In this document: piece by piece, positions 5,642 to 59,932 of the stretch | How positions within the stretch are numbered: position 1 is the stretch's first letter | How the letters are laid out: each line of letters opens with the position of its first letter | Source: Acetobacteraceae bacterium | GTDB taxonomy: Bacteria; Pseudomonadota; Alphaproteobacteria; Acetobacterales; Acetobacteraceae | Direction of reading: 5' to 3' | DNA length: 64,000 nt | Assembly: GCA_965199345.1 (NCBI GenBank) | Contig: CBDARA010000002.1 | Location: forward strand, 984,019 to 1,048,018 | Translations under genes and position numbers: made by a program | The notes under the pieces: model-generated | Told to the model about the DNA's origin: nothing | The model's database searches: none | Seen by the model: the letters and a program-made list of their open reading frames with translations, nothing else

Positions 5642-5666
5642 CGGCCGCTCACCCGCAACTGGACTG

Positions 5667-7868: not shown

Positions 7869-7880
7869 GTCTCACCCGTC

Positions 7881-10800: not shown

Positions 10801-11213
10801 GGCGAGCCCTGCGGCGCATGGCGCGCGCGCTGGAACCACGGATGCTGGTCGGAGGTGTGGTTGATGACGAGTTCGGTGATCACTCGCAAGCCGAGTTCGT
10901 GGGCTTTCTCGATAAACTCCCGCAGCTGCTCGATCGTGCCGTAGTCGTCCGACACGCCGCGGTAATCCGAGATGTCGTAGCCGTCGTCGCGTCGTGGTGA
11001 GGGATAGAACGGCAGCATCCAGATCGCGGTGACACCGAGTTCGGCGATGTAGTCGAGCTTCGCCAGCAATCCCGAGATGTCGCCGATGCCGTCGTTGTTG
11101 CCGTCAAAAAACGATTTTACGTGCACCTGATAGATGATCGCGTCCTTGTACCAGAGCGGATCGTCGATGTTGGTCGGGTGACGTGGAACGGTCGTCGTCG
11201 TCGTGATGCTCAT
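7881..11213 (-). CDS. treS: fused trehalose synthase / maltokinase (TreS-Pep2)
   Basis: 1110 aa. N-terminal GH13 TreS (WYKDAIIYQVHVKSFFD...GYDISDYRGV...LRLDAVPYL). C-terminal kinase-like maltokinase (HGDFHLGQVLV...IDFEGEP). Confidence 0.92.
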   Translation of the reverse strand: MSITTTTTVPRHPTNIDDPLWYKDAIIYQVHVKSFFDGNNDGIGDISGLLAKLDYIAELGVTAIWMLPFYPSPRRDDGYDISDYRGVSDDYGTIEQLREFIEKAHELGLRVITELVINHTSDQHPWFQRARHAPQGSPERDFYVWSDTDDKYNETRIIFLDTEKSNWAWDDVAGAYYWHRFYSHQPDLNFDNPHVLDEVLSVMRFWCDLGVDGLRLDAVPYLVERDGTTNENLPETHAIIKKIRAELDVSAPGVMLLAEANMWPEDVQYYFGEGDECQMAFHFPLMPRMYMAIAREDRFPITDIMRQTPEIPDNCQWAIFLRNHDELTLEMVTSSERDYLWETYASDKRARINLGIRRRLAPLLQRDRRRVELMNGMLLSMPGTPVIYYGDEIGMGDNIHLGDRDGVRTPMQWSIDRNGGFSRADPASLVLPPIMDAIYGYMAVNVEAQSADSHSLLNWMRRMLAVRRRHIAFGRGAQRFLYPSNRKVLAYLREYDSGATHEVILCVSNISRTAQAVELDLREFEGRVPVDVVGGSIFPPIGQLHYLLTLPPYAFYWFLLAAREDMPEWHASAPEPLPDLQTLVVRSSVGEIFENPRQRDMLQNVLPEYLGKRRWFGSKGERIELARFAYAVTLDRRRNNRTVLTEIEVRVGERIEHYVLPLGAVAETVNDPLVHNLALSRIRRVALVGFLTDGFASDDFTLAILDAMRREERYALPSGGELVFRKGPTFDAVELSDQPTIRRLSAEQSNSSEIIDDLIVLKVIRKVLAGVHPEGEITRYLTERGFGNTAPLFGDVVRIGPDGVPHTVILLQGFVRNQGDGWGWTLDYIARVADDHGPQSPEENAIVAAEAFDGYQPFIAAVGRRLAELHDILSSPTDQVDFAPRVAGLAEREEWADGAVAQVDGAMVQLARLLEREGPIGDDDRHIATALIARAAAIRDLLRQLAREADGALATRVHGDFHLGQVLVTGSDAYLIDFEGEPAKTMDERRAHSCPLRDVAGMLRSLDYAAASADMRAEATTALGAERKAQLLAAFRDVSVTVFRDSYQAVLAASRNPWVGPTNEAKLLDLFLIEKAAYEIRYEASNRPAWLPIPLRGLAAIVDRLLPARA

Positions 11214-11227
11214 GGACTACCAGTTGA

Positions 11228-14200: not shown

Positions 14201-14446
14201 TGTCGCGAGCCCTTCCTCGATCGTCCCGCCGCCGAACACGGCTGCGGCTCGCGACCCGTCGGCGAGCAGGCCGTCGCGCGTCTCGAAGGGTGTCGGCAAC
14301 AGTGCCGCGTCGAAGCCGAGCCCGCTCGCCTCGGCCAGCGCCGCGCGAAGATCGAGCCCTTCCGTGTCGGGGATCTCGCGCAGGCGGAACGGTCGCTTCG
14401 CGGCTTGGTTCTCGCGGGTCGCGCCCACCGGTTGGAGCGTGTCCAT
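11228..14446 (-). CDS. glgE: alpha-1,4-glucan:maltose-1-phosphate maltosyltransferase with an N-terminal extension of about 428 aa
   Basis: The GlgE-type region starts near internal Met 13162 (MPRLALENPTPAVDGGQFAVKR...) and contains a GH13 core (RVDNPHTKPF, FLAEAFTRP). The frame stays protein-like up to ATG 14446, which is preceded by GGGGGAGAG. Further upstream the frame is junk. Confidence 0.82.
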   Translation of the reverse strand: MDTLQPVGATRENQAAKRPFRLREIPDTEGLDLRAALAEASGLGFDAALLPTPFETRDGLLADGSRAAAVFGGGTIEEGLATLARARAGTPIALIADLPVDGVAAHSPLHRANRSAFAEPDTSGLFDPRRVLEPERAPPQGEAGAASLAGLVADLAEALARAGLDGVRLRRLARADGATVHAIARAVRERLPGFIVIADTAGLPWDQLERIPAGLLDHVVASSAWWNWADDWFFSELDHLRRIAPVLVPAVSLARQSGTVSSQAGLTRDLGLALSLGSGWILPAATIATDDTVRRLLRETNALFDGPAAAALASGAGVALLNGIHAPVLASLRTAEPDPRGARMAFLALLNTSARSEATIDPAQFLPSVGGLFGPFTATHPGEGERLVPGHGITLAAGAFRLFQAERAERSTSPAPLDPEAARQAAATMPRLALENPTPAVDGGQFAVKRRAGETVTVEIDIIGDGHDKLGAALQWRGPGDPDWSETRLAPLGNDRWQAAFPIAIVGMHHYRVVAWRDAFATFRDELAKKHNAGVPTALEIREGTALVVEQLGGSAEPGARSLVGRLEAADDDDARRAILLDDALNAAMMRADPRPHAVSTAPMPVDAERTGAAFASWYEVFPRSLSDDVGRHGTFRDVERHLPRIRDMGFDVLYFPPIHPIGRTNRKGPNNTLTPSATDPGSPYAIGSDDGGHDALHPELGSFNDFEHLLGAAASHGLEIAIDFAIQCSPDHPWLTEHKDWFVWRPDGTIRYAENPPKKYQDIVNVDFYAAGSVPGLWLELAQVVMFWCERGIRLFRVDNPHTKPFPFWQWMIGEIRQRYPDAVFLAEAFTRPKVMARLAKVGFSQSYTYFTWRNDKAELAAYLEELADGPLREFFRPHFFVNTPDINPFFLQDSGRPGFLIRAALAATLSGLWGVYNGFELCEGTPLAPGKEEYLDSEKFQLRAWDWNRSGNIVPEITRLNAIRRANPALQTHLGVKFLPSSSDAVLVYEKATTDRSNVLLIAVSLDPLQAHESAIELPLWRSGLPDHGTLQFEDLLDDRRFALAGKQQTLRLAPERPYSIWRLAAPLSS

Positions 14447-14493
14447 CTCTCCCCCTTCGCCTCGACCGCCAGCCTGCGCGAGCGTGATGGAGG

Positions 14494-14519
14494 AACGTCG
14501 GTTTCGGTTGCTTGGTTGC
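14494..14519 (-). promoter_or_regulatory. candidate EcfG-type (general stress) promoter upstream of glgE
   Basis: The minus strand reads GCAAC-N17-CGTT about 48 nt upstream of the glgE ATG. The consensus I recall is GGAAC-N16-17-CGTT, so there is one mismatch in the -35 box. Confidence 0.25.
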
Positions 14520-14589
14520 CCGCCGCGGGACGATCGTCCACGCGGCGTCGGGGGTGGTGGTCGCGGGTCCGGCCCTCGTCGGGCGGTGG

Positions 14590-15336
14590 TCAGGCGATGG
14601 TGACGCCGCCGGTCACCGCCTGGTAGGTCGCGATCGCGAGCGTCAGCGGTTCGAAGGGTTTCGTGATGACGAAGGCGGGTTCGAGCGCGTCCCCGGTCAG
14701 CAGGCGCTCCGGGTAGGCGGTGACGAAGATCACGGGCGCACGGTGGTGTCGCATGATCCGGCTGATCGCGTGCGCGCCGTCGCCGCCCGCGCCGAGGTTG
14801 ATGTCGGCGAGGATCAGCCCCGGGCGGGCGTCGGCGGCGATCCGCACGGCGTCCGCCTCCGTCGCGGCGACGCCGACGACGCGGTGGCCGCAGTTCTGGA
14901 CCAGCTCCTCGATGTCCATCGCGATGATCGGCTCGTCCTCGATGATCAGCACGTCGGCCGACGCCGCCGAGCGGAGCTGCTCGCGGGCGACGCCGAGCGC
15001 GGCCGACGCCTCTGCTTCGTCGAGGCCGGTGATGCCGGCCGCCTGCGCCGACGAGCAATCCTCGAGCGTGGTGAGCAGCAGCAGTTGGCGCTGCTTGTGG
15101 CTGAGGCCGACCGGCGTCTCGCCGCTCACGTCGGCGTCGAACCGCCGGGTCAGCCACCGGTAAAGCGTCAGGCGAGCGTCCGCGGCGGTGGCGTCGCGTC
15201 CCTGTGGCAGCATCTGGCGCAGGCCCTCGGCGACCAGGAGGTCGCCGCGAGGTTGGCTGCCGGTCAGAGCACGGGCATACCGGCGGCCATACGGAAGGGC
15301 CCGGATCAGGTCGTTGCGCCAGGAGTCCATCATCAT
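14590..15336 (-). CDS. phyR: PhyR anti-anti-sigma response regulator (sigma-like N-domain plus receiver)
   Basis: 248 aa. The N-terminus resembles ECF sigma regions 2/4 (YGRRYARALTG..., LSHKQRQLLLLTTLE). The C-terminus is a receiver domain (VLIIEDEPIIAMD...LILADINLG...VIFVTAYPE). Confidence 0.9.
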   Translation of the reverse strand: MMMDSWRNDLIRALPYGRRYARALTGSQPRGDLLVAEGLRQMLPQGRDATAADARLTLYRWLTRRFDADVSGETPVGLSHKQRQLLLLTTLEDCSSAQAAGITGLDEAEASAALGVAREQLRSAASADVLIIEDEPIIAMDIEELVQNCGHRVVGVAATEADAVRIAADARPGLILADINLGAGGDGAHAISRIMRHHRAPVIFVTAYPERLLTGDALEPAFVITKPFEPLTLAIATYQAVTGGVTIA

Positions 15337-15402
15337 TCCAGCTTCCCTTGCTCCCGCCGACCGTTCTCCGTGGCGGGATGGACATCCGTCGGACGCGAGG
15401 TC

Positions 15403-46968: not shown

Positions 46969-47024
46969 GCGACCCGCGCCCGCATCGGCACCGCGGCGTC
47001 GCTCACGCGACCCGCGCCCGCATC
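46949..47024. repeat. perfect 38-bp tandem duplication (2 copies) across a gene junction
   Basis: GGCACCGCGGCGTCGCTCACGCGACCCGCGCCCGCATC occurs at 46949-46986 and again at 46987-47024. I verified this base by base. Confidence 0.97.
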
Positions 47025-48475
47025 GGGATCGCCGTTTCCGCCGATCGGGCCGGCCTGCCGATCGCGGCGAGACGACCGGCGAGAAACTCCGCCTGGTGTC
47101 GGATGTCGGGCACCGCGGTCATCTCCCAGAACGTGCCGCGCGTGACCGGGCCGATCGCGAACAGGCGGCGCGAGATCGCGCCCTCGCGGTCGAGCAGCGC
47201 GCAGTTCGCGGTGACGTCGAGACCGAGCGACAGCGCGTCGGGTCGCACCAGTCCTCTGCTCAGCAGCGAACGGATCAGCCCGTCGCGGATGCGGCCGTAG
47301 TCGGCGTTCGGGCCGGCGCAGTTGATCACCCGACCCGCCACGACGCGCTCGAGCCCGTCCCGGCCGCGCGGCCGGTAGGCGATCGTGACCTGCCGCCCGA
47401 GGATCTCGTAACCGGCGATGTGACCGGCCAGCACGCCGAGCTGGCGGCGGCGTCGCGCGTCGTCGATCCGGTCGGCGACCGGTCCCGAGAGGCGATGGCG
47501 GTGGACGTCCCACCAGGGCCGGACGTGGCGCAGGAACCGTCGCCGCTCGGCGGTCGGCATCGCCTGCCAGATCTCGGTCGTGAACGGGCGAAGCTCGTCG
47601 ATGATCGCCTGCCAGCTGCCGCCCTGGCGCATGTTCTGCGCGCAGCGGGCGCGGAGCGTGCGGGCGAGCGCCGCGGCGCCGGTCGGACATGATGGCGGCT
47701 CCGGCAGCGTGCCGCCCCCGGGGGCCGCGTGCCGGTTCGGCAGCAGACCGCGACGGGAGAGTGCCACGATCGGACCCTGGTGGTTCCCATCGAGCAGCGA
47801 AATCACGGTGTCGACCATCGTCAGGCCGGTTCCGATCAACAGCACCGGCGTGTCGGGATCGAGACCGTCGAGCGCGTCGGCCGCCCAGGGATCGGGCTTG
47901 TAGAAGGCCGTGTCGTAGAAGCGGCGATCCTCGATCGGTGGCGGTGCCGGCGGGAAGTTGCCGACCGCGAGCACGGCGCGGTCGGCACGCAGCGCGCGTC
48001 CGCGATCGAGCGACAGGCACAACCCTCGCGCATCCGGCGAGATATCGATCACGTCACCGCGCACCAGCGTCAGGCGGTCGAGCGTGTCGCCCCTGATCTC
48101 CGCGTGCAGGAGGTGGCGCACGTAGCGGCCGAACATGTGACGCGGCACGAAGGTGTCGCCGCACGGCGGTTCGGCGTCCGCATTCGCGCGCAACCAGTCG
48201 AGAAAATGCAGCGGCTCGCCATGGAAGGCGCTCATCTTGGCCGCCGGTACGTTCAGCAGGTGCGACGAGTTGCCGGCCGCGTAGGCGGGGCCGCGGCCGA
48301 ATTGCGCATTCCGCTCGATCAGCACGACCCTGACCTGCATGTCCGCTCGCCGCAGCAGATGGAGCGCGAGCAACGTGCCGCTGAAGCCCGCGCCCACGAT
48401 CGCCACCGTCTGTCGGCCGTCCGTGTCGAGCGGGACGAGTTCGGCCGCGGCGTCGGGCCCGAGTGTGTCCGGCAT
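47003..48475 (-). CDS. FAD/NAD(P)-binding domain protein
   Basis: 490 aa. N-terminal dinucleotide fold (VAIVGAGFSGTLLALHLL) and a second fold (VLLIGTGLTMVD). Confidence 0.8.
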   Translation of the reverse strand: MPDTLGPDAAAELVPLDTDGRQTVAIVGAGFSGTLLALHLLRRADMQVRVVLIERNAQFGRGPAYAAGNSSHLLNVPAAKMSAFHGEPLHFLDWLRANADAEPPCGDTFVPRHMFGRYVRHLLHAEIRGDTLDRLTLVRGDVIDISPDARGLCLSLDRGRALRADRAVLAVGNFPPAPPPIEDRRFYDTAFYKPDPWAADALDGLDPDTPVLLIGTGLTMVDTVISLLDGNHQGPIVALSRRGLLPNRHAAPGGGTLPEPPSCPTGAAALARTLRARCAQNMRQGGSWQAIIDELRPFTTEIWQAMPTAERRRFLRHVRPWWDVHRHRLSGPVADRIDDARRRRQLGVLAGHIAGYEILGRQVTIAYRPRGRDGLERVVAGRVINCAGPNADYGRIRDGLIRSLLSRGLVRPDALSLGLDVTANCALLDREGAISRRLFAIGPVTRGTFWEMTAVPDIRHQAEFLAGRLAAIGRPARSAETAIPMRARVA

Positions 48476-48578: not shown

Positions 48579-49973
48579 TTGCCGTCAGCCGAGCCGAAGA
48601 AGCTGCACGTGAACCTGTTCGAGATGGGTTGCGTCGGGCACATCGTGCACGGGCTTTGGCGGGCACCGGGAAACCTCCGTCATCGCTACGCCGAGCCGGC
48701 GTTCTGGACGGAGCTCGCCGGGCTGGCGGAAGCGGGCGCGCTGGACGCGATCTTCCTCGCCGACGTGATCGGCGCCTACGACCGGTTCGGCGACGGCCTC
48801 GCGCCGGCCCTGCGGCAGGCGGTGCAGATCCCGAACCTCGATCCCCTGCTGCTGGTGCCGCTGATGGCGGCGACGACGCGCGGCATCGGCTTCGGGGTCA
48901 CGTTCTCGACCACCTACGAACCGCCCTTCGCGTTCGCACGCCGCATGTCGACGCTCGACCACCTGACGCGAGGCCGCATCGGCTGGAACATCGTCACGTC
49001 CTATCTGCCGAACGCCGCGCGGAATTTCGGCCACCAGGGGGAAGTGCCGCATGCCGAACGCTACGCGCGTGCCGAGGAATATCTGGACGTGCTCTACAAG
49101 CTCTGGGAAGGGTCGTGGAATGACGGCGCCGTTCGACGCGACCACGCGGCCGGCCTCTACACCGATCCCTCATCCGTGCGCCCGATCGATCATCACGGCA
49201 CGTTCTTCGACGTCGCCGGGCCGCACCTCGTCGAGCCCTCGCCGCAGCGGACGCCCGTGCTGTTCCAGGCGTCCGCGTCCGAGACGGGCCTGGGCCTCGC
49301 CGCGCGTCACGCCGAACTGGTGTTCATCGGCGGCCAGACGCAGGACGACGTGCGGCGCAACATCTCGGCAACGCGACACGCCGCGCGCGAGGCGGGGCGC
49401 GATCCTGCCGGTCTGAAATTCATCGTCATGGCCGGCATCGTCACCGCACGCACCGACGGGTTGGCGCAGCGGAAGCTCGACTCCTATCGCAGGTTCTACA
49501 GCATCGAAGGGGCGCTGGTGCATGCGCAGGCCGAGATCGACCTGCGGGCCTGCGCGCCCGACGAGACGATCGAGGCGGCACTTCGACGCACCGGACGCGG
49601 CTTCGGCAACATGGGACGCCGGTTCCGCCCCGACCAGACGGTCGCGAGCGCGCTCGACCAGATCGGCCGCTTCGACGAGGAGCGCTTCTTCGTGTGCGGT
49701 ACGCCGCCGCAGGTGGTCGACCAGATCGAGACCTGGCTCGACGAGGACGGCATCGACGGCATCAATCTCCGCCAATACATGTCGTTCGAGACGCTGACGG
49801 ATTTCGTCGAGCTGGTGGTGCCGGAACTTCGTCGGCGTGGCCGGTTCCGCGAGGCCTACGCGCCCGGCGAGACGCTGCGCGAGCGCTTCTTCGGGCCGGG
49901 CGGGCCGATTTTGCCGGCGGACCATCCCGCCGCGTCGCGGCGGCATGGGGGAGCGGCCAGGGTTCTGCCCTAG
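48579..49973 (+). CDS. LLM-class flavin-dependent monooxygenase (NtaA/SnaA/DszA family)
   Basis: 464 aa from TTG 48579 (RBS GAGGAGG). LHVNLFEMGCVGHIVHGLWRAPG...GWNIVTSY... is typical of the family. Confidence 0.88.
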   Translation: MPSAEPKKLHVNLFEMGCVGHIVHGLWRAPGNLRHRYAEPAFWTELAGLAEAGALDAIFLADVIGAYDRFGDGLAPALRQAVQIPNLDPLLLVPLMAATTRGIGFGVTFSTTYEPPFAFARRMSTLDHLTRGRIGWNIVTSYLPNAARNFGHQGEVPHAERYARAEEYLDVLYKLWEGSWNDGAVRRDHAAGLYTDPSSVRPIDHHGTFFDVAGPHLVEPSPQRTPVLFQASASETGLGLAARHAELVFIGGQTQDDVRRNISATRHAAREAGRDPAGLKFIVMAGIVTARTDGLAQRKLDSYRRFYSIEGALVHAQAEIDLRACAPDETIEAALRRTGRGFGNMGRRFRPDQTVASALDQIGRFDEERFFVCGTPPQVVDQIETWLDEDGIDGINLRQYMSFETLTDFVELVVPELRRRGRFREAYAPGETLRERFFGPGGPILPADHPAASRRHGGAARVLP

Positions 49974-50007
49974 ACAGGCTCCGGCCGCGCGGGCGCGAAC
50001 GACACCG

Positions 50008-51312
50008 TCAGGGGGCGTTCCGGGCCGCTGACACGGCTTCGCGGCGCATCGGAGCGCCGGAGCGTGGCCGGTCCGATCGCTCGACGATCCGGTCGGCCAG
50101 GAAGGCGGCGTCGCGGGCTACGCCGGAGAACCGTCCCGAGCCCCAGCTGTGCAGCCAGGGCAGGCCCAGGAACATCAGCCCGTCCATGTCGGGAGACACG
50201 CCCCGGCTGTGCGCGGGCCGTCCGCTCGCGTCGAGCGGCAGGCCCTCGATCCAGCTCATGTCCATGGCGAAGCCGGTGGCCCAGATCACCGTGCGGATCC
50301 TGGCCGCCTCGAGATCGAGCACGGTGTCGTGGTCCGCGGGCGGCGTCCACACCGGACGATAAGGCGCCTCGGCGGGTGCCGCGACGCCGTTCTCCGCGAT
50401 CCAGCGATCGATCGAGCGCTTGATCGCCTCGTTGGCGGCGTCCGCCCGGTCGAGATTTCCAGCGAGATCGGGCGCGAAATGCAGGCGATTGCCGTCGAGC
50501 GACAGCATGCGGCCGTGAAGATGCATGCCGGCCGCCGCATGCGCGCGCAGATCGATGTCGCGGCCGCCGTCGCGTCCGGTCACGTAGTGGTTGGTGTTGT
50601 CGCGCACGCCGAGGCCGAGCGGATGCTGCTCGACCGGGAGATCGTAGAACTTCATCAGGTCGAGCCAGGCGACGACGTCGCGGCCGCGATAGAAGCGCGA
50701 CACGCGCGGCGCGCGACCGACCGCGAGATGGACATCGCGGCCGCCGAGCAGGAGATCCTCGGCGATCTGCGCGCCCGACTGGCCGCTGCCGACCACCAGG
50801 ATCCCGCCATCGCGGATCTCGCGCGGGTTCCGATATCGGAACGGATTGATCTGTTCGATGTCGGGCGGCAATTCCGCCGCGATCGCCGGCAGGCGCGGCC
50901 GGTGATAGCCGCCGGTGGCAACGACGACGCACCCGGCGCGGATCGTGCCGGATTCGGTGCGGACGTCGAAACGGCCTTCGACCTGCCGCACGCCGGTGAC
51001 CTCGACCCCCGTCACCAGGGGAGCGCCGAACGAGCCGGCATAGTCCGACACGTAGCGGACGATCTCGTCGCGACGCATGAAGCCGTCCGGATCCGATCCG
51101 GCATAGGGGAACCCGGGCAGGCGGCACTGCCAGTTGGGCGTGACGAGGCAGAAACTGTCCCAGCGCTCCCGGTGCCACGCATGGCCTGGTGCGTGCCGCT
51201 CCACCACGACATGCGGGATGCCGCGATCGACCAGATGCCAGCTCATCGAAAGGCCAGCTTGGCCGCCGCCGATGACGACGATGTCGGTCGCGTCTGGAAG
51301 GCTCTGGTTCAT
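50008..51312 (-). CDS. flavin-dependent oxidoreductase, MSMEG_0569-like (Nit1C cassette)
   Basis: 434 aa. Motifs DIVVIGGGQAGLS and VVGSGQSGAQIAEDL. Position and context match the Nit1C cassette. Confidence 0.82.
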   Translation of the reverse strand: MNQSLPDATDIVVIGGGQAGLSMSWHLVDRGIPHVVVERHAPGHAWHRERWDSFCLVTPNWQCRLPGFPYAGSDPDGFMRRDEIVRYVSDYAGSFGAPLVTGVEVTGVRQVEGRFDVRTESGTIRAGCVVVATGGYHRPRLPAIAAELPPDIEQINPFRYRNPREIRDGGILVVGSGQSGAQIAEDLLLGGRDVHLAVGRAPRVSRFYRGRDVVAWLDLMKFYDLPVEQHPLGLGVRDNTNHYVTGRDGGRDIDLRAHAAAGMHLHGRMLSLDGNRLHFAPDLAGNLDRADAANEAIKRSIDRWIAENGVAAPAEAPYRPVWTPPADHDTVLDLEAARIRTVIWATGFAMDMSWIEGLPLDASGRPAHSRGVSPDMDGLMFLGLPWLHSWGSGRFSGVARDAAFLADRIVERSDRPRSGAPMRREAVSAARNAP

Positions 51313-51605
51313 GATCGGTCCCGCTCGAAGGCGACGACGGTGACGCGTCCGGGGTCGTCGGCGCCGAACGCCCCCGCGCGGCGTCGGATCGCGTCCGACT
51401 GCGTTCGCGCCCGCGCGCAGGGCGTGCCGTATTTCGCCGCCACGCGATCGCTCGCGATCGCCAGCGCCGCGGTCGCTCGCGCGACGAAGTCGGCGACCTC
51501 GTAGGTGGCGCCCTCGTCGAGATGGTCCGCGATGACGAGCGACGGAGAATAGCAGACCATGTCGGCGCCATCCGGCCAGCGCACGCGAAAATGCATCTCA
51601 GGCAT
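51309..51605 (-). CDS. MSMEG_0570-like small protein (Nit1C cassette)
   Basis: 98 aa from ATG 51605 (MPEMHFRVRWPDGADMVCYSPSLVI...). Overlaps both neighbouring genes. Confidence 0.72.
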   Translation of the reverse strand: MPEMHFRVRWPDGADMVCYSPSLVIADHLDEGATYEVADFVARATAALAIASDRVAAKYGTPCARARTQSDAIRRRAGAFGADDPGRVTVVAFERDRS

Positions 51606-52737
51606 GATGACGCTCACCCGCGTAGAGTTCGAGATGACGGTGCGCGACCGCCGACCAATCGAACCGTGCGGCCACCGCGTCACCGGACGCGCCGTAGCGT
51701 GCCGCGCACGGTGCCGAGACGGCGTCCCGCATCGCCGTCGCGATCGACCCGACATCGTCGGGATCTGCCCAAAGACAATCGTCGACGTCGAAATGCTCGG
51801 TGAACGGCGGGATCGCCGACACGATCACCGGACGCCCGCTCGCCATCGCCTCGAGCGGACACAGGCCGAAGCCTTCCGCGCGCGACGGGAACACGAGCGC
51901 ATCGGCGAGCCGGTAAAGCGCCGGCATGTCGTCGTCGTCCACCACGCCGGCCCGGATCACCGCCGCCGCCGCCGTGCTGGCCGAGAGCATGCGCTCGAAG
52001 GCGGCGCGCGCCGGCGCGTGGTCGAGCAGGCTCGCGCCGCCGGCAATCACCAGCCGGGCGGAAGGCCGCTCGGCGTGGATGCGGATGAAGGCGTCGAGGA
52101 TGGCGACGCTGTTCTTGCGATGCTCGATGCCGCCGATCGAGAGAAAGATCGGACCTGCCGCGGCGGCGAGGCCGAGGCGTGCCGCCAGCGCTGCGTCACG
52201 GGCATCGGCGTGCGGGCTGAAGCGCGTCCGGTCGACGCCGTTGCCGACGATGTCGGCCTCGGCGCCGTGTCGCTCGCGGAGGATGGTGCGCCAGAGCCGG
52301 CTGACGCAGAAGAGGCGCGACGCGTCGGCGATGCCGGCCCGCTGCCAGGCATCGAGTTGCGGATCGCCATGGGTGTCGACGTGATGGACGGTGCGGACGA
52401 AGCCCGCGATGCGCCCGCGCGCCCGGAGGCGGGACAGGGCGTTGGCGGAGATCGGGTCCTGCGCGTGCCAGACATCGAAGCAGTCCGCGTCCCGCGACGC
52501 GAAGGCACCGGCGATCGCCTCGATCCGGTGCGCGACATCCTCGGCAAGGTCGCGGCCTCGCGTCACGCCGACGATCCGTCGGCTGGCAGGACCGTCGCGA
52601 AAGAAGGCGCTGCCCTCCCGACCGGGCGCGATCACGGTGGCGTCATGGCCGAGCGCCGCGAGGCGATCGGCGAGTTCGACCGCGTGCACGACGCCGCCGC
52701 GCGGGATGGTGGAATGGGTGAAAATGCCGATCCGCAC
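51598..52737 (-). CDS. GT4 glycosyltransferase, MSMEG_0565-like (Nit1C cassette)
   Basis: 379 aa. Starts MRIGIFTHSTIPRGGVVH and contains the E-x7-E region (FPSRAEGFGLCPLEAMASG). Confidence 0.85.
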   Translation of the reverse strand: MRIGIFTHSTIPRGGVVHAVELADRLAALGHDATVIAPGREGSAFFRDGPASRRIVGVTRGRDLAEDVAHRIEAIAGAFASRDADCFDVWHAQDPISANALSRLRARGRIAGFVRTVHHVDTHGDPQLDAWQRAGIADASRLFCVSRLWRTILRERHGAEADIVGNGVDRTRFSPHADARDAALAARLGLAAAAGPIFLSIGGIEHRKNSVAILDAFIRIHAERPSARLVIAGGASLLDHAPARAAFERMLSASTAAAAVIRAGVVDDDDMPALYRLADALVFPSRAEGFGLCPLEAMASGRPVIVSAIPPFTEHFDVDDCLWADPDDVGSIATAMRDAVSAPCAARYGASGDAVAARFDWSAVAHRHLELYAGERHHA

Positions 52738-52747
52738 GCGAGTTCGC

Positions 52748-53722
52748 TCAGCCGAGCAGCGCGTGGCGGGAAAGGTCGCGGATCGTGACGTCGCCGAGCG
52801 CGGGCGAGCCGAGCCGCACCTGTCGCGAGGCGTCGCAGCGCCCGATCGCCGCCGCCGCGATGCCGCGGGCGGCGAAGCGCGCGACCACGGTCGCCGTGTC
52901 CGCCGGCGCGGTCGCGAGCAGGAAGCCGTAGCTTGGAAAGGCGGTGAGCCAGAGCGCGAGGTCGATGCCGTCCGGCCGCGGCACTGCCAGTGGGTCGATC
53001 GTGCAGCCGATCCCGGACGCGTCGGCCAGCATCGCCGCGGTGCCGATCAGCCCACCCATGCTGATGTCCTTCGCGACCCGGCAGAGGCCCTCCTCGGCGA
53101 GCGCGGGCAGCAGCGCGAGGTCGCCGCGCAGGCGTTCGGCCTCGCCGTCGCTTGCGGCGGCCGAACTCGCGTCCCACCACGGGCTCGGCAGCCGCATGGT
53201 GCCGCGGAGGTCGATCGCGGCGACCAGATCGTGCCCGGGGCGTGCATCGAACGAGGTGAGCAGCGCGCGGGCGCGGCCGAGGATGGCGACCGCGAACTGG
53301 CTGCCGGAGGCGTTCCGGGTGTTGGTGTGTCCGCCGGCGACCGGGATGCCGTAGGTCTCGGCGGCCGCGCGCAGCCCGTCGAGCAGCGAGGCGGCGGCGG
53401 CGTCCCCGTCGGTCCAGACCGCGTCGACGATCGCGATCGCGCGGCCGCCCATGGCGGCGACGTCGCTCGCATTGACCATCACGCCGCACCAGCCGGCGAA
53501 GAATGGGTCGGCCGCGACGAACTCGTTGAGGAAGCCCTCGATCGCGAACAGCAGGTGACCGTCGCCGTCCGGGATCGCGGCGCAGTCGTCGCCCGCGTCG
53601 CGCGACGCGAGATCGAGGCCGAGCCGCTGCAACACGGGTCCGATGTCGCCCTTGTGCGCGAGACCGCGACCGGCGCGGAGCGTGTCGGCGAGGTTTTCGA
53701 GACCGGCGGCGTCGAGCGGCAT
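52748..53722 (-). CDS. AIR-synthase (PurM)-related protein, Sll0787-like (Nit1C cassette)
   Basis: 324 aa from ATG 53722. PurM-like motifs (GDDCAAIPDG, VNASDVAAMGG, VAGGHTN, KDISMGGLIGT). Confidence 0.8.
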   Translation of the reverse strand: MPLDAAGLENLADTLRAGRGLAHKGDIGPVLQRLGLDLASRDAGDDCAAIPDGDGHLLFAIEGFLNEFVAADPFFAGWCGVMVNASDVAAMGGRAIAIVDAVWTDGDAAAASLLDGLRAAAETYGIPVAGGHTNTRNASGSQFAVAILGRARALLTSFDARPGHDLVAAIDLRGTMRLPSPWWDASSAAASDGEAERLRGDLALLPALAEEGLCRVAKDISMGGLIGTAAMLADASGIGCTIDPLAVPRPDGIDLALWLTAFPSYGFLLATAPADTATVVARFAARGIAAAAIGRCDASRQVRLGSPALGDVTIRDLSRHALLG

Positions 53723-54303
53723 CAGGACGAAAGCCGCGCGCGCGCGGCGCCGGCGCGATCGTGCGCGACGGGTGCGATGTGGAGGATGTCGGGCCCGGCG
53801 AGCGGCGGGTAGAAGGCGAGGTCGGCCTCCATGCGCGCGTGCGGGCGACCGTGCAGGGTCGCCTCGCCGAGGACGCGCCAGTGCAGGTGCTCGAACATCG
53901 CCACGTTCTGGACCTGCACATGCGCGTGGAAACGGCTGCAGCCTTCGGCGGCGGCGGTCGACACCGCGAACCGGATCAGCTCGGCGCCGATGCGTCCGGC
54001 GCCGCGCATCGCGCGCGAGACGCAGAGCCGCGAGCCCCACCAATGCCCTTCGGCCGCCTCGTGGATCCGCACCGCGCCGACCACCGCGTCACCCTGGCCG
54101 AGCAGGCACGACACCGCGACGATCGGGATGGCGGTGCCGTCATCGAGCGCGTCCCGGTCGCTCGCTGCGAAGACCTGCTGTTCGACGCAGAAGGCTTCCC
54201 GGCGGCACCGATGGTGGCCGAGCACCTCGTAGGGGAGCGTCGCGCGCCGGATGCGGAATTCGGACGGTCGGAACTCCCGTGGCGCGTCCTGCCAGAGGTT
54301 CAT
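53722..54303 (-). CDS. GNAT N-acetyltransferase, MSMEG_0567/Sll0786-like (Nit1C cassette)
   Basis: 193 aa from ATG 54303. GNAT-like core (VGAVRIHE...WWGSRLCVSRAMRGAGRIGAELIRFAV). Confidence 0.8.
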   Translation of the reverse strand: MNLWQDAPREFRPSEFRIRRATLPYEVLGHHRCRREAFCVEQQVFAASDRDALDDGTAIPIVAVSCLLGQGDAVVGAVRIHEAAEGHWWGSRLCVSRAMRGAGRIGAELIRFAVSTAAAEGCSRFHAHVQVQNVAMFEHLHWRVLGEATLHGRPHARMEADLAFYPPLAGPDILHIAPVAHDRAGAARARLSS

Positions 54304-55433
54304 GCGGCCTGCTCGGCGCGCTCGTAGGCCGACAGCGTCGAGCAGGCGCCGCAGCGGCCGCAGCCCGCCTTGGCCCGGTCGGCGGTGAGCTCCGCTTGCC
54401 GCAGCATCGCGCCGAGCGGCGCCAGCACGCGACGCATGAAGGCGGCGTCCGGCGATGGGTGCTGCTCGAGCGGCGTGCCGGAGATCGGCACGAACGGCAC
54501 GACGAACGGGTAGACGCCGAGCCCGATCAGCGTGCGCGACAGATCGAGGATCTCGTCCTCGGTGTCGCCGAGCCCGGCGAGGATGTAGGTGCTGACCTGC
54601 CCGCGGCCGAACACGGCGACGGCGTCGGCGAAGGCGTCGAGATAGCGTGCGACCGGAACGTTGGCCTTGCCCGGCATGATGCTCCGGCGCACCCGGTCGG
54701 TCGCCGCCTCGAGATGCATGCCGAGCGTGTCGACGCCGGCGTCGCGAAGCCGCCGGAACCAGGCGTGATCGCGAGGCGGTTCGCATTGCGCCTGGATCGG
54801 CAGCGGAACCGCCGACTTCACCGCGAACGCGCTTTCCGCCAGCACGGCGGCGCCGCGATCGGTCGTGTTGGGGGTGCCGGTCGTCATGACCATGTGGCGC
54901 ACGCCATCAAGCAGCATCGCGGCGCGCGCGACCTCGGCGAGCTGCTCGGGGCTCTTGCGGGCGATGGTGCGGCCGGCGGCGAGACTCTGCCCGATGGCGC
55001 AGAACTGGCATGCGGTGCGGCTGTCGCGCATGCGCACGCACTCCTGCAGCACGGTGGTCGCGAGCACGTCGCGACCGTGCAGCAGCGCGATCTTCCAGTA
55101 GGGCACGCCGTCGAGGGTGGAGAGCGCGTAGAATCGCGGCGCCTGCGGGAACACGATGCGGCCGACCGTCTCGCCGTCGCGCTCGAGCGTGCTCGCTCCG
55201 TTTCCGTCGGGCGGCGCCGCGGCGAACGGCGAGTGCCGCGCGTTCGCGGTGTGGATCGGGACCATGATCGTCTGGCCCGCCACCGTCACGGCGCGATGAT
55301 CCGACGGACCCGCGCCGCCCCGCCTCCCGCCGCGCGCGGCATCGTCAGTCAGCCGCATCCCGAGCGATTGCAGCTCCGTGATCAGCGTTCGGCTCGACAG
55401 CGGTAGCGATGCGGGGAGGGTCATCGAGTGCAA
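54300..55433 (-). CDS. radical-SAM-family protein, MSMEG_0568-like (Nit1C cassette)
   Basis: 377 aa. N-terminal [12 protein letters not shown]. Cys cluster [16 protein letters not shown]-terminal GCGRCGAC. The TIM-barrel-like middle and the context support the call. Confidence 0.78.
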
Positions 55434-56394
55434 TTCCCGTGGGCTTGGCGCGCGTCCAGACCGTTCGGGCCGGCTGCGCGTCGTGCAGGAGGGACAGGAG
55501 TTCGGGTCGCGCGTAATGGCCGACGCTGTCCATCATGCGTTTGCGCTTGGTCACGAGGTCGAGGTCGAGATCGGCGATGACGCTGCCTTCGCCCTCGGTG
55601 ACCGGCGTGCCGAGGATCTGTCCTTCCGGCGAGACGATGGCGGTGAACGAGCCGCCGCGCAGCGCCCGGGTGAGCGCCGGACGGTCGCGATCGGAGAAGT
55701 CGCGCGCGAGTTCCGTGACCTGCTCGTCGTGCAGCCAGCCGGTCGCGTTGACGACGAAGCAGCCGGCCTCGAGCGCATGGTGACGGAGGGTCACCTCCAT
55801 CTGATCGGCGAAGATCTGCCCGACCAGCGATCCCGGGAACTGCGCGCAATGGATCTCCTCGTGCTGCGCCATCAGGGCGTAGCGGGCGAGGGGATTGTAG
55901 TGCTCCCAGCAGGCGAGCGCGCCGACGCGGCCGCAGGCGGTCTCGACGACCTTCAGCCCGGCGCCGTCGCCCTGACCCCAGATCATCCGCTCGTGGTAGG
56001 TCGGCGTGATCTTGCGACGCTTCAGGCACAGCGTGCCGTCGGCATCGAACACCAGCTGGGTGTTGTAGAGCGACCCGTGGTCGCGCTCGTTGACGCCGAG
56101 CACGACCACCATGCCGTGACGCCGGGCCGCCTCGGACACGGCGTCGGTGACCGGACCGGGCACGCTCGGCGCGTTCTCGTAGAGGCGGAGATGTTCCGCG
56201 CCGATCGAGGCGGGCGGCCGGACGAAGGCGAAGTAGGGATAATAGGGAACGAACGTTTCCGGGAACACGGCGAGCTCGACACCTTGCGAGGCGAGATCGC
56301 CGAGGGTCGCGAGAACCTTCGCGACCGTGCCGGTCGCGTCGGTCAGCACGGGGCAGAGCTGCACCGCGGCGGCGCGGACCGTCCGTCCCGCCAT
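55345..56394 (-). CDS. nitrilase (Nit1C / Sll0784-type)
   Basis: 349 aa. Catalytic Glu-Lys-Cys triad ([26 protein letters not shown]). Confidence 0.9.
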
Positions 56395-56397
56395 CGG

Positions 56398-56880
56398 TCA
56401 GACCGTCCAGCTGTCCAGCACGAAGGCATTGTCGCGCTTGTGCAGCAGGATGCAGTCGAGGACGTCGAGCGGATTGATCGGCTTGATCCCCTCCATGAGC
56501 GACGGCTCGCCATGGCCGTAGAGGGCCTGCAGCGAGAAGCGGCAGGCATAGACCTTGCCACCCTCCTCCATGAATTTCCGGATCTGGTTGTTGAAGTTCT
56601 GATGCCCCGGAAACGCCTCGTCGCCGAGACGCGGGAAGCCCCGCAACACGCCGAGCGTCACGCCGGGACCGTAGAGAAGGATGCTCGTTTCGAACCCTTT
56701 TCGCTGCAACCGGGTTGCCTGCAGCAGGTTCACGAGGCCGATCGAGCCTTCGAAGGCGACGGTGTGGAAGGTGACGAGCGCCTTCTGGCCGGGCTCGGCC
56801 TTGACGTCCTCGAAGACCTTTTCTTCGTAGTCGACGAGGGCGTCGCCGACCTTGTGCTTGGGATATTCGACCGGCGGCAT
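56398..56880 (-). CDS. Sll0783/MSMEG_0572-like nitrogen-starvation-response protein (first gene of the Nit1C cassette)
   Basis: 160 aa from ATG 56880 (RBS GGAG). [13 protein letters not shown]...[18 protein letters not shown]...[16 protein letters not shown]. Confidence 0.8.
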
Positions 56881-57182
56881 CGCGTCACTCCGGTTTTGCG
56901 CTGTTCGGCGTTGACGGGCGGATTGCCCGGACACGCGATCTTGGCGCTTTCGGCGCCAGTGCCTCAAGGCCAACAATGACAGCCGGCATCGTGCGGAGCC
57001 GATGCGCACGATCCGGACGCTTATGGCCAAATACCAGACATCCGAGCAGCGTGGCGACCAGATCCTTGCGCTATGCCTTAGACACAGGCGGTTCATGCAC
57101 GCGAAACGTGCATCCGCCCGGGAACACGCGAACTCGGCGCTCGAAGGCTTGATATCACAAAACCGTGTGCTTACAATCGCGA

Positions 57183-58598
57183 TCAGACAATCTGGCCACG
57201 ACCCTCCGGGAGTTTGCCTTCGATCGCCGTCGCCAACGCCGACACCGCGGTTTCCAATTGCGCGCGACTGGACGCGGCGCCGAGCGCGAGGCGAACCGCG
57301 TTTGCCGTCTCGCGGCCGACGCGGAAGACGTCGTCGGCGACGAGTGCGAGACCGTGGTGCCGCACGACGTCGACGAAATCGGCCGCTTTCCAGATCGACG
57401 GCAGACGCAGCCAGACATGCAGCCCTTCGGGATGAGCGACGATGTCGTAGCGGGAGAGTGCGGCCGCGGCGATCGACTGGCGCGTGGTCGCTTCCTTGCG
57501 GATCGCGTCGAGCAACAGTCCCGCGTCACCCGAGCGGATCAGGGTGGTCGCGAGCCCGGTGAGCAGACCCGATCCCATCTGCACGCTGCCGCGAACGGCA
57601 GCGGTGAAGCGCTCTCGCTCGGTCTTGCTCGGGCTCACGAGATAGGCGACACGCAGGCCCGGCGTCAGTGCCTTGGCGGTGGTCGCCAGATAGAAGACGA
57701 GCTCGGGCGCGAACGAGGCGAGTGCGGGATACGGATCGCTCGGCAACAGACCGTAGGCGTCGTCTTCGAGAATGGGTGTGCCGTAGACGCGGGCGACGGC
57801 GACGATGTCGCGGCGACGCGCGAGCGACATGGTCGCCGTGGTCGGGTTCTGTATCGTCGGATTGCAGTAGATCAGCCGCGGGCGCAACTCGCGGCACATG
57901 CGATCGAGTTCGTCGGGAACGAAGCCTTCGTCGTCGATCGGCACGCCCGCGAGCGTCACGTCGAACTGGGCGGCAAGAGCCCGTATTCCCGGGTAGGTGA
58001 CGCTTTCGGTGAGCACGACGTCGCCGGGCCGCGTGAGGCTCGAGACCACTGCCAGCATGCCGCTCTGCGCGCCGGGGCAGACCAGGATCCGCTGCGGATC
58101 GATGCGATCGAGACACGGCCTGAGCCAGGCGGCGCCTGCGGTGCGGTCCTCCGCGCTGCCGGTGTCCCAGTGATAGGTCATCATCGCCGCCAGGTCCTGC
58201 CGGCGCAGCACGCGATCGAGCCCTTCGCGCAGGATGGTCCGAAGGCTCGGGTCTTCCGGCACGGGCGGCAAATTCATCGACAGGTCGACGATCGGTCCGT
58301 GCCGGCGACGCGATTGCAGCAGCGGCGCCTCGGCGCGGATGAAGGTGCCGCGACCGACATGGCTCTCGATCAGGCCCTGTCGCTGGGCTTCGGCATAGGC
58401 GCGCGTCGCCGTGGTGACGTCGATCGAGAGCAGCCTGGCCAACAGCCGATGCGGCGGCAGGCGATCGCCGGCGAGAAGATCGCCGTCACGCACGGCATCG
58501 GCGATCGCGGTCGCGATGCCCTGATAAAGCGGTCCCGTACGGCCCTCGAGAGCCGGCAGCCACCATTCGCAGGTCGTTTCGGCCGTTGATCTCGCCAA
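57183..58598 (-). CDS. MocR/GntR-family PLP-dependent transcriptional regulator
   Basis: 471 aa. N-terminal wHTH ([41 protein letters not shown]) fused to a class I aminotransferase-like domain ([23 protein letters not shown]). Confidence 0.88.
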
Positions 58599-58759
58599 GG
58601 TCGGAGAGTCCGCAATCGATTGTCTGGGCTTTGAATGTCACAGCGTCCAGCAAAGCTCATGCCGCGGCGTCCGACGGGATTGTCAGACCACACGGCGTGC
58701 GGAACATTCCGATCAGAACACAGCGCCAGCGTGCGGGGCCCCTGCCGGAGACCCTTCTC

Positions 58760-59932
58760 GTGAAAAAATGTTTCGGTATCATCGCCTTCGCGTCTGCCCT
58801 GTCGGGTGCGGGTGCTGCGCTCGCGCAGCAGCCCGCACGGCCGGCCTCGGGATCGTTCATGGACGGCTTCTCGGGCGGGACGCCGTATGTCGGCCTCGCC
58901 GGCGGCTACTCGATCCTGCAGAATATTGCCGTCAATCCGCAGGATGGACCGCTCGGTCCGGGGCCGGCGACGGAACGCTGGACCGACGGCTTCATCAGCG
59001 CCGCCGCGGTCGGTTGGGCGTTCACCAACGGCTTCCAGGTCGACGTTCTCGGCGCTTACGACTACAACAACGTCAACAACATCGTAAAGCTGCCGGTGCC
59101 GTCGGTGCAGACGGGACATCAGGACAGCTATGGCGCCTTCCTCGAAGAACTCTACGCGTTCAAGCTGCCGAACTTCGGGATGAATATCACGGCGTTCAGT
59201 CCCTACATCGGCGTCGGCGAAGGCGCGCTCTGGACCCACGTCAACCTACCGGTCATGCTCTCGAACGGTGATCTGCATCACATCGGCGGCACATCGGGCG
59301 CCAATTTCGCCTACGAGGGCATCGTCGGGGCGGCCTTCCCGATCGCGGCGATCCCGGGTCTCGCGTTCACCGCGGACTACCGCATCGTCGGCATCCACGA
59401 CCCCGGCGACCTGAACAGCGTCTTCTACAACCGCGTCGCGGGCGCCATCGTCAAAGGACCGATCGGCCTGCAGAAAGACGATTTCGTGCATCTGTTCACG
59501 GTCGGCGTCGCCTACGCGTTCAACGCCGCGCCGCCGCCGCCGCCGTCGGCCCCCGCGCCGGTCGTGGCGCCCGCGCCGGCGCCCGCCCGCACCTATCTCG
59601 TGTTCTTCGACTGGGACAAGTCGTACCTGACGCCACGCGCGCGCCAGATCGTCGCCGAGGCCGCCCAGAACTCGACCCGCGTGCAGACCACGCAGATCGA
59701 GGTCAACGGCTACGCCGACACCTCGCACGCGCTCCCCGGCCGTCGCGGCCAGGAGTACAACCTCCGCCTCTCGATCCGACGCGCCGACAGCGTCCGGGCC
59801 GAGCTCGTGCGGGACGGCGTGCCGACCGGCGCGATCGACGTGCACGGCTACGGCGACACGCACCTCCTCGTGCCCACCGGCCCGAACGTGCGCGAGCCGC
59901 AGAACCGCCGCGTCGAGATCATCCTGCACTGA
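58760..59932 (+). CDS. OmpA-family outer membrane protein (beta-barrel, Pro-rich hinge, OmpA_C)
   Basis: From GTG 58760 (VKKCFGIIAFASALSGAGAALAQQ signal). Hinge APPPPPSAPAPVVAPAPAP. C-terminus VNGYADTS...NLRLSIRRADSV...NRRVEIIL. Confidence 0.82.
   Translation: MKKCFGIIAFASALSGAGAALAQQPARPASGSFMDGFSGGTPYVGLAGGYSILQNIAVNPQDGPLGPGPATERWTDGFISAAAVGWAFTNGFQVDVLGAYDYNNVNNIVKLPVPSVQTGHQDSYGAFLEELYAFKLPNFGMNITAFSPYIGVGEGALWTHVNLPVMLSNGDLHHIGGTSGANFAYEGIVGAAFPIAAIPGLAFTADYRIVGIHDPGDLNSVFYNRVAGAIVKGPIGLQKDDFVHLFTVGVAYAFNAAPPPPPSAPAPVVAPAPAPARTYLVFFDWDKSYLTPRARQIVAEAAQNSTRVQTTQIEVNGYADTSHALPGRRGQEYNLRLSIRRADSVRAELVRDGVPTGAIDVHGYGDTHLLVPTGPNVREPQNRRVEIILH

Follow-up and report, generated by a model that had tools for sequence, protein, structure and literature searches.

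An intact eight-gene Nit1C cluster with a co-directional MocR gene in an uncultured member of the Acetobacteraceae

The 64,000-nucleotide stretch of DNA considered here (the window: part of contig CBDARA010000002.1, assembly GCA_965199345.1, from an Acetobacteraceae bacterium) carries, in a region of about 70% GC, an intact eight-gene Nit1C cluster, preceded on the same strand by a gene for a MocR-type regulator that depends on pyridoxal phosphate (PLP). That identity is essentially certain. The eight genes had been annotated correctly: the system is a known one, found here in a new host, and the window contributes no new Nit1C component. I propose further that the cluster is a functional chromosomal operon, that the MocR protein controls it in response to a cyanide-derived signal, and that its task is to salvage nitrogen from cyanide or nitriles. 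Taken as a whole this proposal is the reading I favor, with moderate confidence. Its regulatory and physiological parts, considered by themselves, seem to me about as apt to fail as to hold.

Between 56880 and 50008 the minus strand holds eight closely packed open reading frames (ORFs); upstream of them, in the same orientation, is a ninth (57183-58598). The initial annotation, made from the letters alone, had read the eight co-directional frames as a complete Nit1C cluster, and a search with the NCBIfam profile models bears out both their positions and their content: each of the eight proteins exceeds the curated cut-off of one Nit1C family (Table 1), and six further Nit1C families stand beside the nitrilase. 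Pfam assignments agree wherever models exist. The order is that of Nit1C, ORF1-nitrilase-rSAM-GNAT-AIRS-(GT)-ORF6-flavoprotein (rSAM, radical SAM protein; GT, glycosyltransferase), in one direction and tightly spaced, with junctions ranging from -89 to +10 nt, and it is found unchanged in most of 80 related loci.

The junctions, recomputed one by one, are exactly those first described. A gap of 3 nt separates g1 from g2 and one of 10 nt separates g5 from g6; g3 meets g4 in an ATGA overlap (54300-54303), as does g7 with g8 (51309-51312); g4 and g5 share base 53722 within TGATG; and g6 overlaps g7 by 8 nt (51598-51605). Junctions of this kind suggest translational coupling, and with it a single transcript for the eight genes. 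The extent of the g2/g3 overlap depends on the start assigned to g3: 89 nt for TTG at 55433, 80 nt for ATG at 55424, and 14 nt for ATG at 55358. The long version is plausible, because the NCBIfam model match begins at residue 19 of the long ORF, because tblastn alignments with homologues begin at residues 1-17 in all loci but one, and because the PGAP annotation of Acidisoma has an 89-nt overlap at this junction as well. Against it stands the choice of the metagenome gene caller, which picked the 14-nt overlap instead.

Table 1. Features of the Nit1C region and its flanks, in window positions. Scores are NCBIfam bit scores, with the curated cut-off after the stroke.
Feature	Position	Strand	Length	Family or type	Score/cut-off
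FAD-NAD(P)-binding (NAD_binding_9) protein	47003-48475	-		Adjoins the monooxygenase gene	
NtaA/DmoA-family FMN monooxygenase	48579-49973	+		TIGR03860; converges on g8, 34 nt between stop codons	465
g8 (nitH-like)	50008-51312	-	434 aa	MSMEG_0569-family flavin-dependent oxidoreductase; TIGR04046	585/498
g7 (nitG-like)	51309-51605	-	98 aa	MSMEG_0570-family; TIGR04042	117/80
g6	51598-52737	-	379 aa	MSMEG_0565-family GT4 glycosyltransferase; TIGR04047	427/260
g5 (nitF-like)	52748-53722	-	324 aa	sll0787-family AIR-synthase/PurM-like; TIGR04049; Pfam AIRS + AIRS_C	398/321
g4 (nitE-like)	53722-54303	-	193 aa	MSMEG_0567/Sll0786-family GNAT N-acetyltransferase; TIGR04045; Pfam Acetyltransf_1	197/68
g3 (nitD-like)	54300-55433	-	377 aa (from TTG 55433)	MSMEG_0568-family radical SAM; TIGR04043	573/304
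g2 (nitC-like)	55345-56394	-	349 aa	Nit6803-family nitrilase; TIGR04048	543/503
g1 (nitB-like)	56398-56880	-	160 aa	MSMEG_0572/Sll0783-family; TIGR04044	277/110
Leader between mocR and g1	56881-57182	-	302 nt		
Candidate operator	56988-57012	-		Perfect 8-bp inverted repeat ATCGTGCG-N9-CGCACGAT, within the best-conserved block of the leader	
mocR	57183-58598	-	471 aa	MocR/GntR-type PLP-dependent transcription factor, co-directional with the cluster	

A 98.1%-identical metagenome contig of 3.07 Mb with the same layout (L081) serves for comparison. Since so close a counterpart (98%) sits on a contig of that size, the locus in the window is taken to be chromosomal. Over the nine genes (mocR and g1-g8) the two differ by 85 synonymous and only 24 non-synonymous codons, and for that reason all nine are judged to be under purifying selection.

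The product of the ninth gene joins a GntR winged helix-turn-helix (HTH) domain (Pfam; residues 24-87) to a fold-type-I aminotransferase-like domain (Aminotran_1_2, residues 104-455), and its Lys309 aligns with the Schiff-base (PLP) lysine motif of MppQ. These are the marks of the MocR subfamily, to which the initial annotation had assigned it. The protein is 45-75% identical to the co-directional MocRs that precede Nit1C in other Acetobacteraceae (Acetobacter, Acidisoma, and metagenome-assembled genomes), and in a neighbor-joining tree without support values it falls within an Acetobacteraceae subclade of co-directional MocRs. Judged by its sequence, it is a member of the YrdX3 clade of the published MocR catalogue.

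The presence of a MocR regulator beside Nit1C had been taken at first for a local peculiarity, and so, by implication, for something new. It is neither, since the pairing was already catalogued in 2016: in the supplement of Suvorova and Rodionov (PMC5320631), the regulon predicted for the MocR groups YrdX and YrdX3 consists of the Nit1C families, and the listing includes Acetobacter pasteurianus IFO 3283-01 and Gluconacetobacter diazotrophicus PAl 5. The eight-gene form was described earlier still, in 2005. One genome per species was scanned and the top 80 loci by similarity to g1 were retained, the closest being from uncultured Acetobacteraceae (g1 up to 94% identical). MocR turned out to be the usual partner. 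A full-length homologue, HTH included, lies directly upstream of g1 in 54 of the 76 loci with enough flanking sequence (tblastn), divergent from it in 50 cases and co-directional in 4, and six more loci have a MocR homologue elsewhere within 10 kb. This adjacency is kept while other neighbors vary. Annotated replicons give the same picture: Acidisoma and Acetobacter plasmids have a co-directional mocR with the eight-gene form, and plasmids of Klebsiella pneumoniae and a pAt plasmid of Agrobacterium have a divergent mocR with the seven-gene form. One of the former, K. pneumoniae pFRPDR_1 (IncFIB/IncHI1B; L088), has mocR divergent from a seven-gene Nit1C that is followed by an AMP-binding gene. 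A MocR homologue is present in 369 Klebsiella plasmid records, and adjacency to Nit1C was seen in the one record opened.

If MocR proteins regulate Nit1C, one might look for their binding sites in front of it. The divergent mocR-g1 spacers bear repeated ATTGATCGCAT boxes, which are present in 40 of the 54 upstream regions linked to a MocR but in 1 of the 21 without one (Fisher p=3e-8, uncorrected for phylogeny) and in 3 of 73 coding controls. The leader in the window contains a palindrome (Table 1) within a block that is conserved in leader alignments of the co-directional clade, and ATCGTGCGCAT is similar to that clade's box, ATTGTnCGCAT, a variant of the majority box. The palindrome would be tied to the majority box only by way of the alignment inside the co-directional clade. 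It is called no more than a candidate operator because a weight matrix of ATTGATCGCAT gave no significant score on the window's leader (best 3.4, compared with 9.5 for the 95th percentile of shuffled sequences).

Other features of the leader may be noted here. Compared with its counterpart in L081 (4424-4725), it is 88% identical (34 mismatches, 2 gaps), between flanking genes that are 98.2-99.0% identical; this divergence is seen between two strains of one population. It spares the block at 56960-57020 and the Shine-Dalgarno region. A scan of 49800-59000 for the sigma-70 consensus found no promoter on the coding strand, which is uninformative for an alphaproteobacterium of 70% GC, and no intrinsic terminator was found in the same interval. 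The Rfam scan gave nothing in the leader. The sole sigma-70-consensus match in the interval, TTGATA-17-TACAAT (10/12; 57149-57177, plus strand), sits where mocR stops and the leader begins, on the opposite strand, and points antisense into mocR.

What the regulator might respond to is suggested by the company its relatives keep. The plasmid homologue second closest to the window's MocR (49% identity) lies in front of cioAB in Roseomonas mucosa; homologues with 43% and 40% identity are found beside cydAB/cioAB in Aminobacter and in front of ccoG in Azospirillum, respectively. In the neighbor-joining tree the MocRs that flank cioAB or ccoG interleave with those linked to Nit1C, well apart from other MocR paralogues. 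Moreover, cioAB, ccoG, or both are found no more than 10 kb from Nit1C in loci of Methylorubrum, Marinobacterium, Sphaerotilus, and Methyloversatilis (L028, 5166-7590; L036, 4130-6554; L064, 3457-7228; L058, 2373-3755; L062, 19673-20407). These are unrelated Proteobacteria, and a second MocR paralogue often goes with the genes, a combination that suggests a "cyanide island."

Two MocR proteins with a known connection to cyanide offer a precedent. MpaR of Pseudomonas aeruginosa is a MocR-type activator of ccoN4/ccoG/nirA that depends on endogenous cyanide and on its PLP lysine; the signal it senses is proposed to be a PLP-cyanide adduct (PMC10790758). The MocR protein encoded next to the cio-nit4 cluster of P. 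pseudoalcaligenes (BN5_1899) is an apparent repressor, the mutant of which derepresses cyanide-induced genes (PMC8567248). The genomic context of the window MocR's relatives would fit, by analogy, a cyanide-responsive, PLP-dependent regulator like MpaR.

As for the structural proteins, the nitrilase, when aligned to Nit6803 (PDB 3WUY; 479 bits), keeps all of its catalytic residues (E46, K128, E135, C162), as had been claimed of its triad, and so belongs with the subfamily 1 (Nit6803-family) nitrilases that have an intact catalytic site. The radical SAM protein has a variant motif, C132-X9-C142-X2-C145, plus C217, each conserved in at least 96% of 76 homologues, and a C-terminal C-X2-C-X2-C (C358/C361/C364), kept to the same extent, that suggests a second Fe-S cluster. 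PDB sequence searches with g1 and g7 gave zero matches. The AlphaFold2 model of g1 (pLDDT 78), however, has as its top ten fold matches in the PDB only DsrE/DsrF/TusD-like proteins (E down to 2e-6); it is thus modeled as a DsrE/TusD-like fold, in accord with earlier assignments, and its Cys113 is invariant in all of 81 sequences (100%). The model of g7 (pLDDT 93) predicts an alpha/beta fold for which Foldseek found no credible match among solved structures in the PDB (best E=0.78, TM<=0.38); here too there is an invariant cysteine, C63, and a nearly invariant one, C18. The flavin-dependent oxidoreductase, g8, is of the flavin-containing/N-hydroxylating monooxygenase type (FMO; Pfam Pyr_redox_3 and Lys_Orn_oxgnase). 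The glycosyltransferase, g6, is the mark that tells the eight-gene from the seven-gene form; among the loci sampled it is present in most from alpha- and betaproteobacteria and absent from those of gammaproteobacteria. Within the nitrilase gene (55889-55968, minus strand) there is a sub-threshold Rfam match to the Mycobacterium small RNA Ms_AS-1 (RF02463; 28.5 bits, gathering score 37, E=0.025), which probably marks not an RNA gene but coding sequence conserved between this cluster and that of M. smegmatis.

The model that I propose brings these elements together. The operon has the order nitB-nitC-nitD-nitE-nitF-GT-nitG-nitH, with what would be its cognate MocR in front on the same strand. 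Its eight genes would be translationally coupled and transcribed as one, from a non-consensus promoter within the leader of 302 nt or else by transcription that continues through from mocR. MocR would bind the conserved block around 56988-57012 and switch the operon on a cyanide-derived signal received at the PLP site, perhaps a PLP-cyanide adduct, perhaps a cyano or amino compound, in the manner of MpaR and the MocR of the cio cluster. The operon would then detoxify cyanide or nitriles and salvage their nitrogen, the nitrilase providing the step that releases ammonia. The remaining proteins (the DsrE-like cysteine protein, the radical SAM enzyme with two clusters, the GNAT, the ATP-dependent PurM/HypE-like enzyme, the glycosyltransferase, the small cysteine protein, and the flavin monooxygenase) would prepare or process the true nitrile substrate.

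Accounts of the enzymology of Nit1C differ. The initial annotation held that neither a substrate nor a product of the pathway had been established. As to the product this stands: no defined pathway product was found in the literature searched (PMC1199592, PMC7815647, PMC11049912), nor are functions of the genes other than the nitrilase defined there. As to the substrate the statement needs some qualification. A seven-gene cluster together with NitA is needed for Pseudomonas to grow on cyanide (PMC11049912, PMC7815647), and the Cordoba group holds that NitC hydrolyzes the cyanohydrin that arises from cyanide and oxaloacetate (PMC11049912, PMC6627978).

The findings of the Kunz group (PMC7815647) weigh against the proposal, as do several other considerations. 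In purified form the Nit1C nitrilase of P. fluorescens acts preferentially on vinylic nitriles and poorly on cyanide, it is inactive on several cyanohydrins, including acetone cyanohydrin, and on beta-cyanoalanine, and its investigators doubt that provision of nitrogen is its main role and call its physiological role unclear. The clusters of Synechocystis and M. smegmatis respond to nitrogen starvation (through NtcA and GlnR), a response in which cyanide has no part. MpaR (PA4132) is filed in the MocR group YdcR rather than in YrdX or YrdX3, and for this reason the cyanide-sensing analogy is one between related groups, not orthologues; the YdcR regulon does share CysI/COG3749 and oxidase genes with YrdX3 regulons (PMC5320631). 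Finally, there are the tree's lack of support values, the weak matrix score of the window's leader, and the make-up of the locus sample, which is rich in Methylobacterium.

An alternative view is that the cluster is biosynthetic, making a small metabolite or cofactor that contains nitrogen or sulfur, possibly glycosylated and N-acetylated, which adjusts redox balance (NADPH) under nitrogen stress. In that case the nitrilase would be a C-N hydrolase or a scaffold within a metabolon, and indeed the Kunz group suggests a biosynthetic metabolon with nitrilase filaments as its base (PMC7815647). Four of the families carry the GO term "biosynthetic process" in PGAP annotation, and the set of enzymes looks like one for tailoring: a radical SAM protein with a second cysteine cluster, a GNAT, a PurM-like protein, a GT4, and an FMO. 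In many genomes the cluster is followed by accessory genes of the AMP-binding or Pnap_2097-family type. The phenotypes outside Pseudomonas also point this way. The gpr cluster of M. smegmatis, which GlnR induces over 500-fold when nitrogen is lacking, raises NADPH/NADP and resistance to peroxide, and sll0783 of Synechocystis is a nitrogen-starvation gene, the mutant of which has an NADPH/polyhydroxybutyrate (PHB) phenotype. Yet in about 20 years no product has been reported in the literature searched, the only clear growth phenotype is the lost use of cyanide in Pseudomonas, and the recurrent linkage to cioAB/ccoG and to MocRs of the same clade is easier to explain by a response to cyanide. 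I regard a biosynthetic or redox role as the main rival to cyanide salvage, a real possibility though a distinctly smaller one, and the two are not mutually exclusive.

It is improbable, in my estimation, that the operon is mainly controlled by nitrogen limitation through sigma-54 and an activator of the NtrC or NitA type, with MocR playing a minor part or regulating only itself or its ompA-like neighbor. The idea has its attractions. Pseudomonas uses NitA, and a TGGCAC-N5-TTGC box lies 53-118 nt upstream of g1 in 66 of the 80 related loci and in none of 69 coding controls (up to two mismatches tolerated, GG and GC invariant). Loci with the box usually also have a divergent mocR and repeated ATTGATCGCAT boxes. 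An adjacent GAF/sigma-54-activator/HTH_8 gene is found in only four loci, all of Myxococcota, and for that reason a distant activator such as NtrC is presumed to serve the box elsewhere. The window is different. Its leader was said at the outset to lack the box, and none is found in 450 nt upstream of g1 even if two mismatches are allowed. There is no homologue of a sigma-54 activator in the window either, hence neither the adjacent activator nor the -24/-12 promoter of a Pseudomonas-type nit regulon. The box is likewise missing, by the same tolerance, from every locus with a co-directional mocR (the window, L001, L003, L005, L007, L081, and the Acidisoma and Acetobacter plasmids). Other loci from Acetobacteraceae (L002, L004, L006, L009) have the box without a mocR upstream. 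A co-directional mocR and loss of the sigma-54 box are thus traits specific to the clade. The conservation of MocR-Nit1C adjacency amid variable neighbors also speaks against a minor role for MocR.

It is very improbable that the MocR is a regulator of ectoine catabolism of the EhuR/EnuR type that lies beside the cluster by chance, for even though EhuR (NF052286) is its best NCBIfam model, the score of 404 bits is below the curated cut-off of 480, ten Nit1C-linked MocRs score similarly against the same best model (331-437 bits, all below the cut-off), the window has no ehu or eut genes, and MocR-Nit1C synteny is kept across classes. EhuR was rejected as its identity on grounds of score and gene context. 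Scoring best to EhuR but beneath its cut-off, these ten MocRs and that of the window make up a separate EhuR-like group rather than EhuR itself.

A bolder extension of the cyanide-salvage proposal can be offered, tentatively, and it is to be taken as a whole. MocRs of the YrdX and YrdX3 groups may be PLP-based sensors of cyanide, with Nit1C, cioAB, and ccoG together constituting a single, widespread cyanide stimulon under MocR control. The Acetobacteraceae lineage of the window may have lost an ancestral sigma-54 input tied to nitrogen limitation and flipped mocR to match the operon, leaving the cyanide signal in sole control. And the DsrE-like and small cysteine proteins may carry cyanide to the nitrilase as protein-bound thiocyanate or nitrile intermediates. 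I would not expect all of this to be right.

Among the neighbors of the cluster, the monooxygenase gene that had been described as converging on its 3' end does so (Table 1). Outside the nearest relatives (L001, L081-L083) neither it nor the adjoining NAD_binding_9 gene is conserved at Nit1C loci, so they are neighbors rather than members. On the other side, a gene for an OmpA-family protein with a proline-rich linker (58586-59932, plus strand) diverges from mocR. Its longest ORF overlaps the start of mocR by 13 nt, and because the gene caller gives a shorter product of 390 aa in L081, the true start is probably further downstream. Elsewhere g8 is followed by an AMP-binding (adenylating) enzyme in 7 loci (L003, L005, L007, L018, L040, L085, L088) or by a Pnap_2097-family protein in 9 (L022, L028, L051, L058, L062-L064, L074, L090), both absent from the window. 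Well away from the cluster, four very large co-directional ORFs (667, 733, 1110, and 1385 aa; 3638-15385, minus strand) show a strong coding signal in GC content at third codon positions.

Among conserved clusters whose biochemistry is unsolved, Nit1C is one of the better known. Thousands of genomes have it, and its carriers include plasmids of Klebsiella pneumoniae and of vinegar bacteria. That its usual local regulator is a MocR/PLP protein, relatives of which control genes for cyanide-insensitive respiration, points to cyanide or a cyanide-derived amine as its signal. Cultivable strains of Acetobacter share the co-directional architecture free of sigma-54 and so offer a simple system in which regulation and function can be tested.

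How does the cluster in the window compare with the systems already described? Nit1C was defined by Podar, Eads, and Richardson in 2005, who also described the Burkholderia/Rubrivivax variant in which a glycosyltransferase gene stands between ORF5 and ORF6 and the flavoprotein gene comes last (PMC1199592). The window has this same arrangement. The eight-gene form of Burkholderia xenovorans LB400 and Rubrivivax has the same seven core families in the same order, the same position of the glycosyltransferase (after the AIRS-like ORF5), the flavoprotein last on the same strand, and few or no intergenic bases. The window differs in its host, an uncultured member of the Acetobacteraceae, in having mocR co-directional rather than divergent, and in having no sigma-54-type box. 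In layout the plasmid of A. pasteurianus IFO 3283-01 is the same, with a co-directional mocR and eight genes, but the MocRs are only 45% identical and the Acetobacter locus is on a plasmid, whereas that of the window is chromosomal.

The best-studied cluster is nitABCDEFGH of Pseudomonas pseudoalcaligenes/oleovorans CECT5344 and P. fluorescens NCIMB 11764. Its nitB-nitH are orthologous to genes in the window, and its nitrilase is likewise of the Nit6803 family. Its seven structural genes, however, include no glycosyltransferase, and it is served by NitA, a Fis-type sigma-54 activator, whereas the window has the glycosyltransferase, a MocR, and no sigma-54 box. Growth dependent on cyanide has been demonstrated in Pseudomonas only. 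The gpr cluster of M. smegmatis (MSMEG_0565-0572) and sll0783-sll0787 of Synechocystis PCC 6803 consist of the same families and have given the NCBIfam models their names. They depart from the window in gene order (in M. smegmatis the GNAT and AIRS-like proteins are fused), in regulation, which is by GlnR/SoxR or NtcA, and in phenotype, which concerns nitrogen starvation, NADPH, PHB, and peroxide, not cyanide.

With respect to regulators, MpaR (PA4132) and BN5_1899 resemble the window's MocR in combining an HTH with a PLP-binding aminotransferase-like domain. Their target genes differ from those in the window, being the cyanide-inducible ccoN4/ccoG/nirA and cioAB-nit4, and the MpaR motif, ATCTGAT, is unlike the boxes at Nit1C loci. 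In the YrdX3 and YrdX regulons, as in the window, a MocR is joined to a predicted regulon of PF02635, COG388, COG2516, COG3153, COG2144, COG2072, and COG438.

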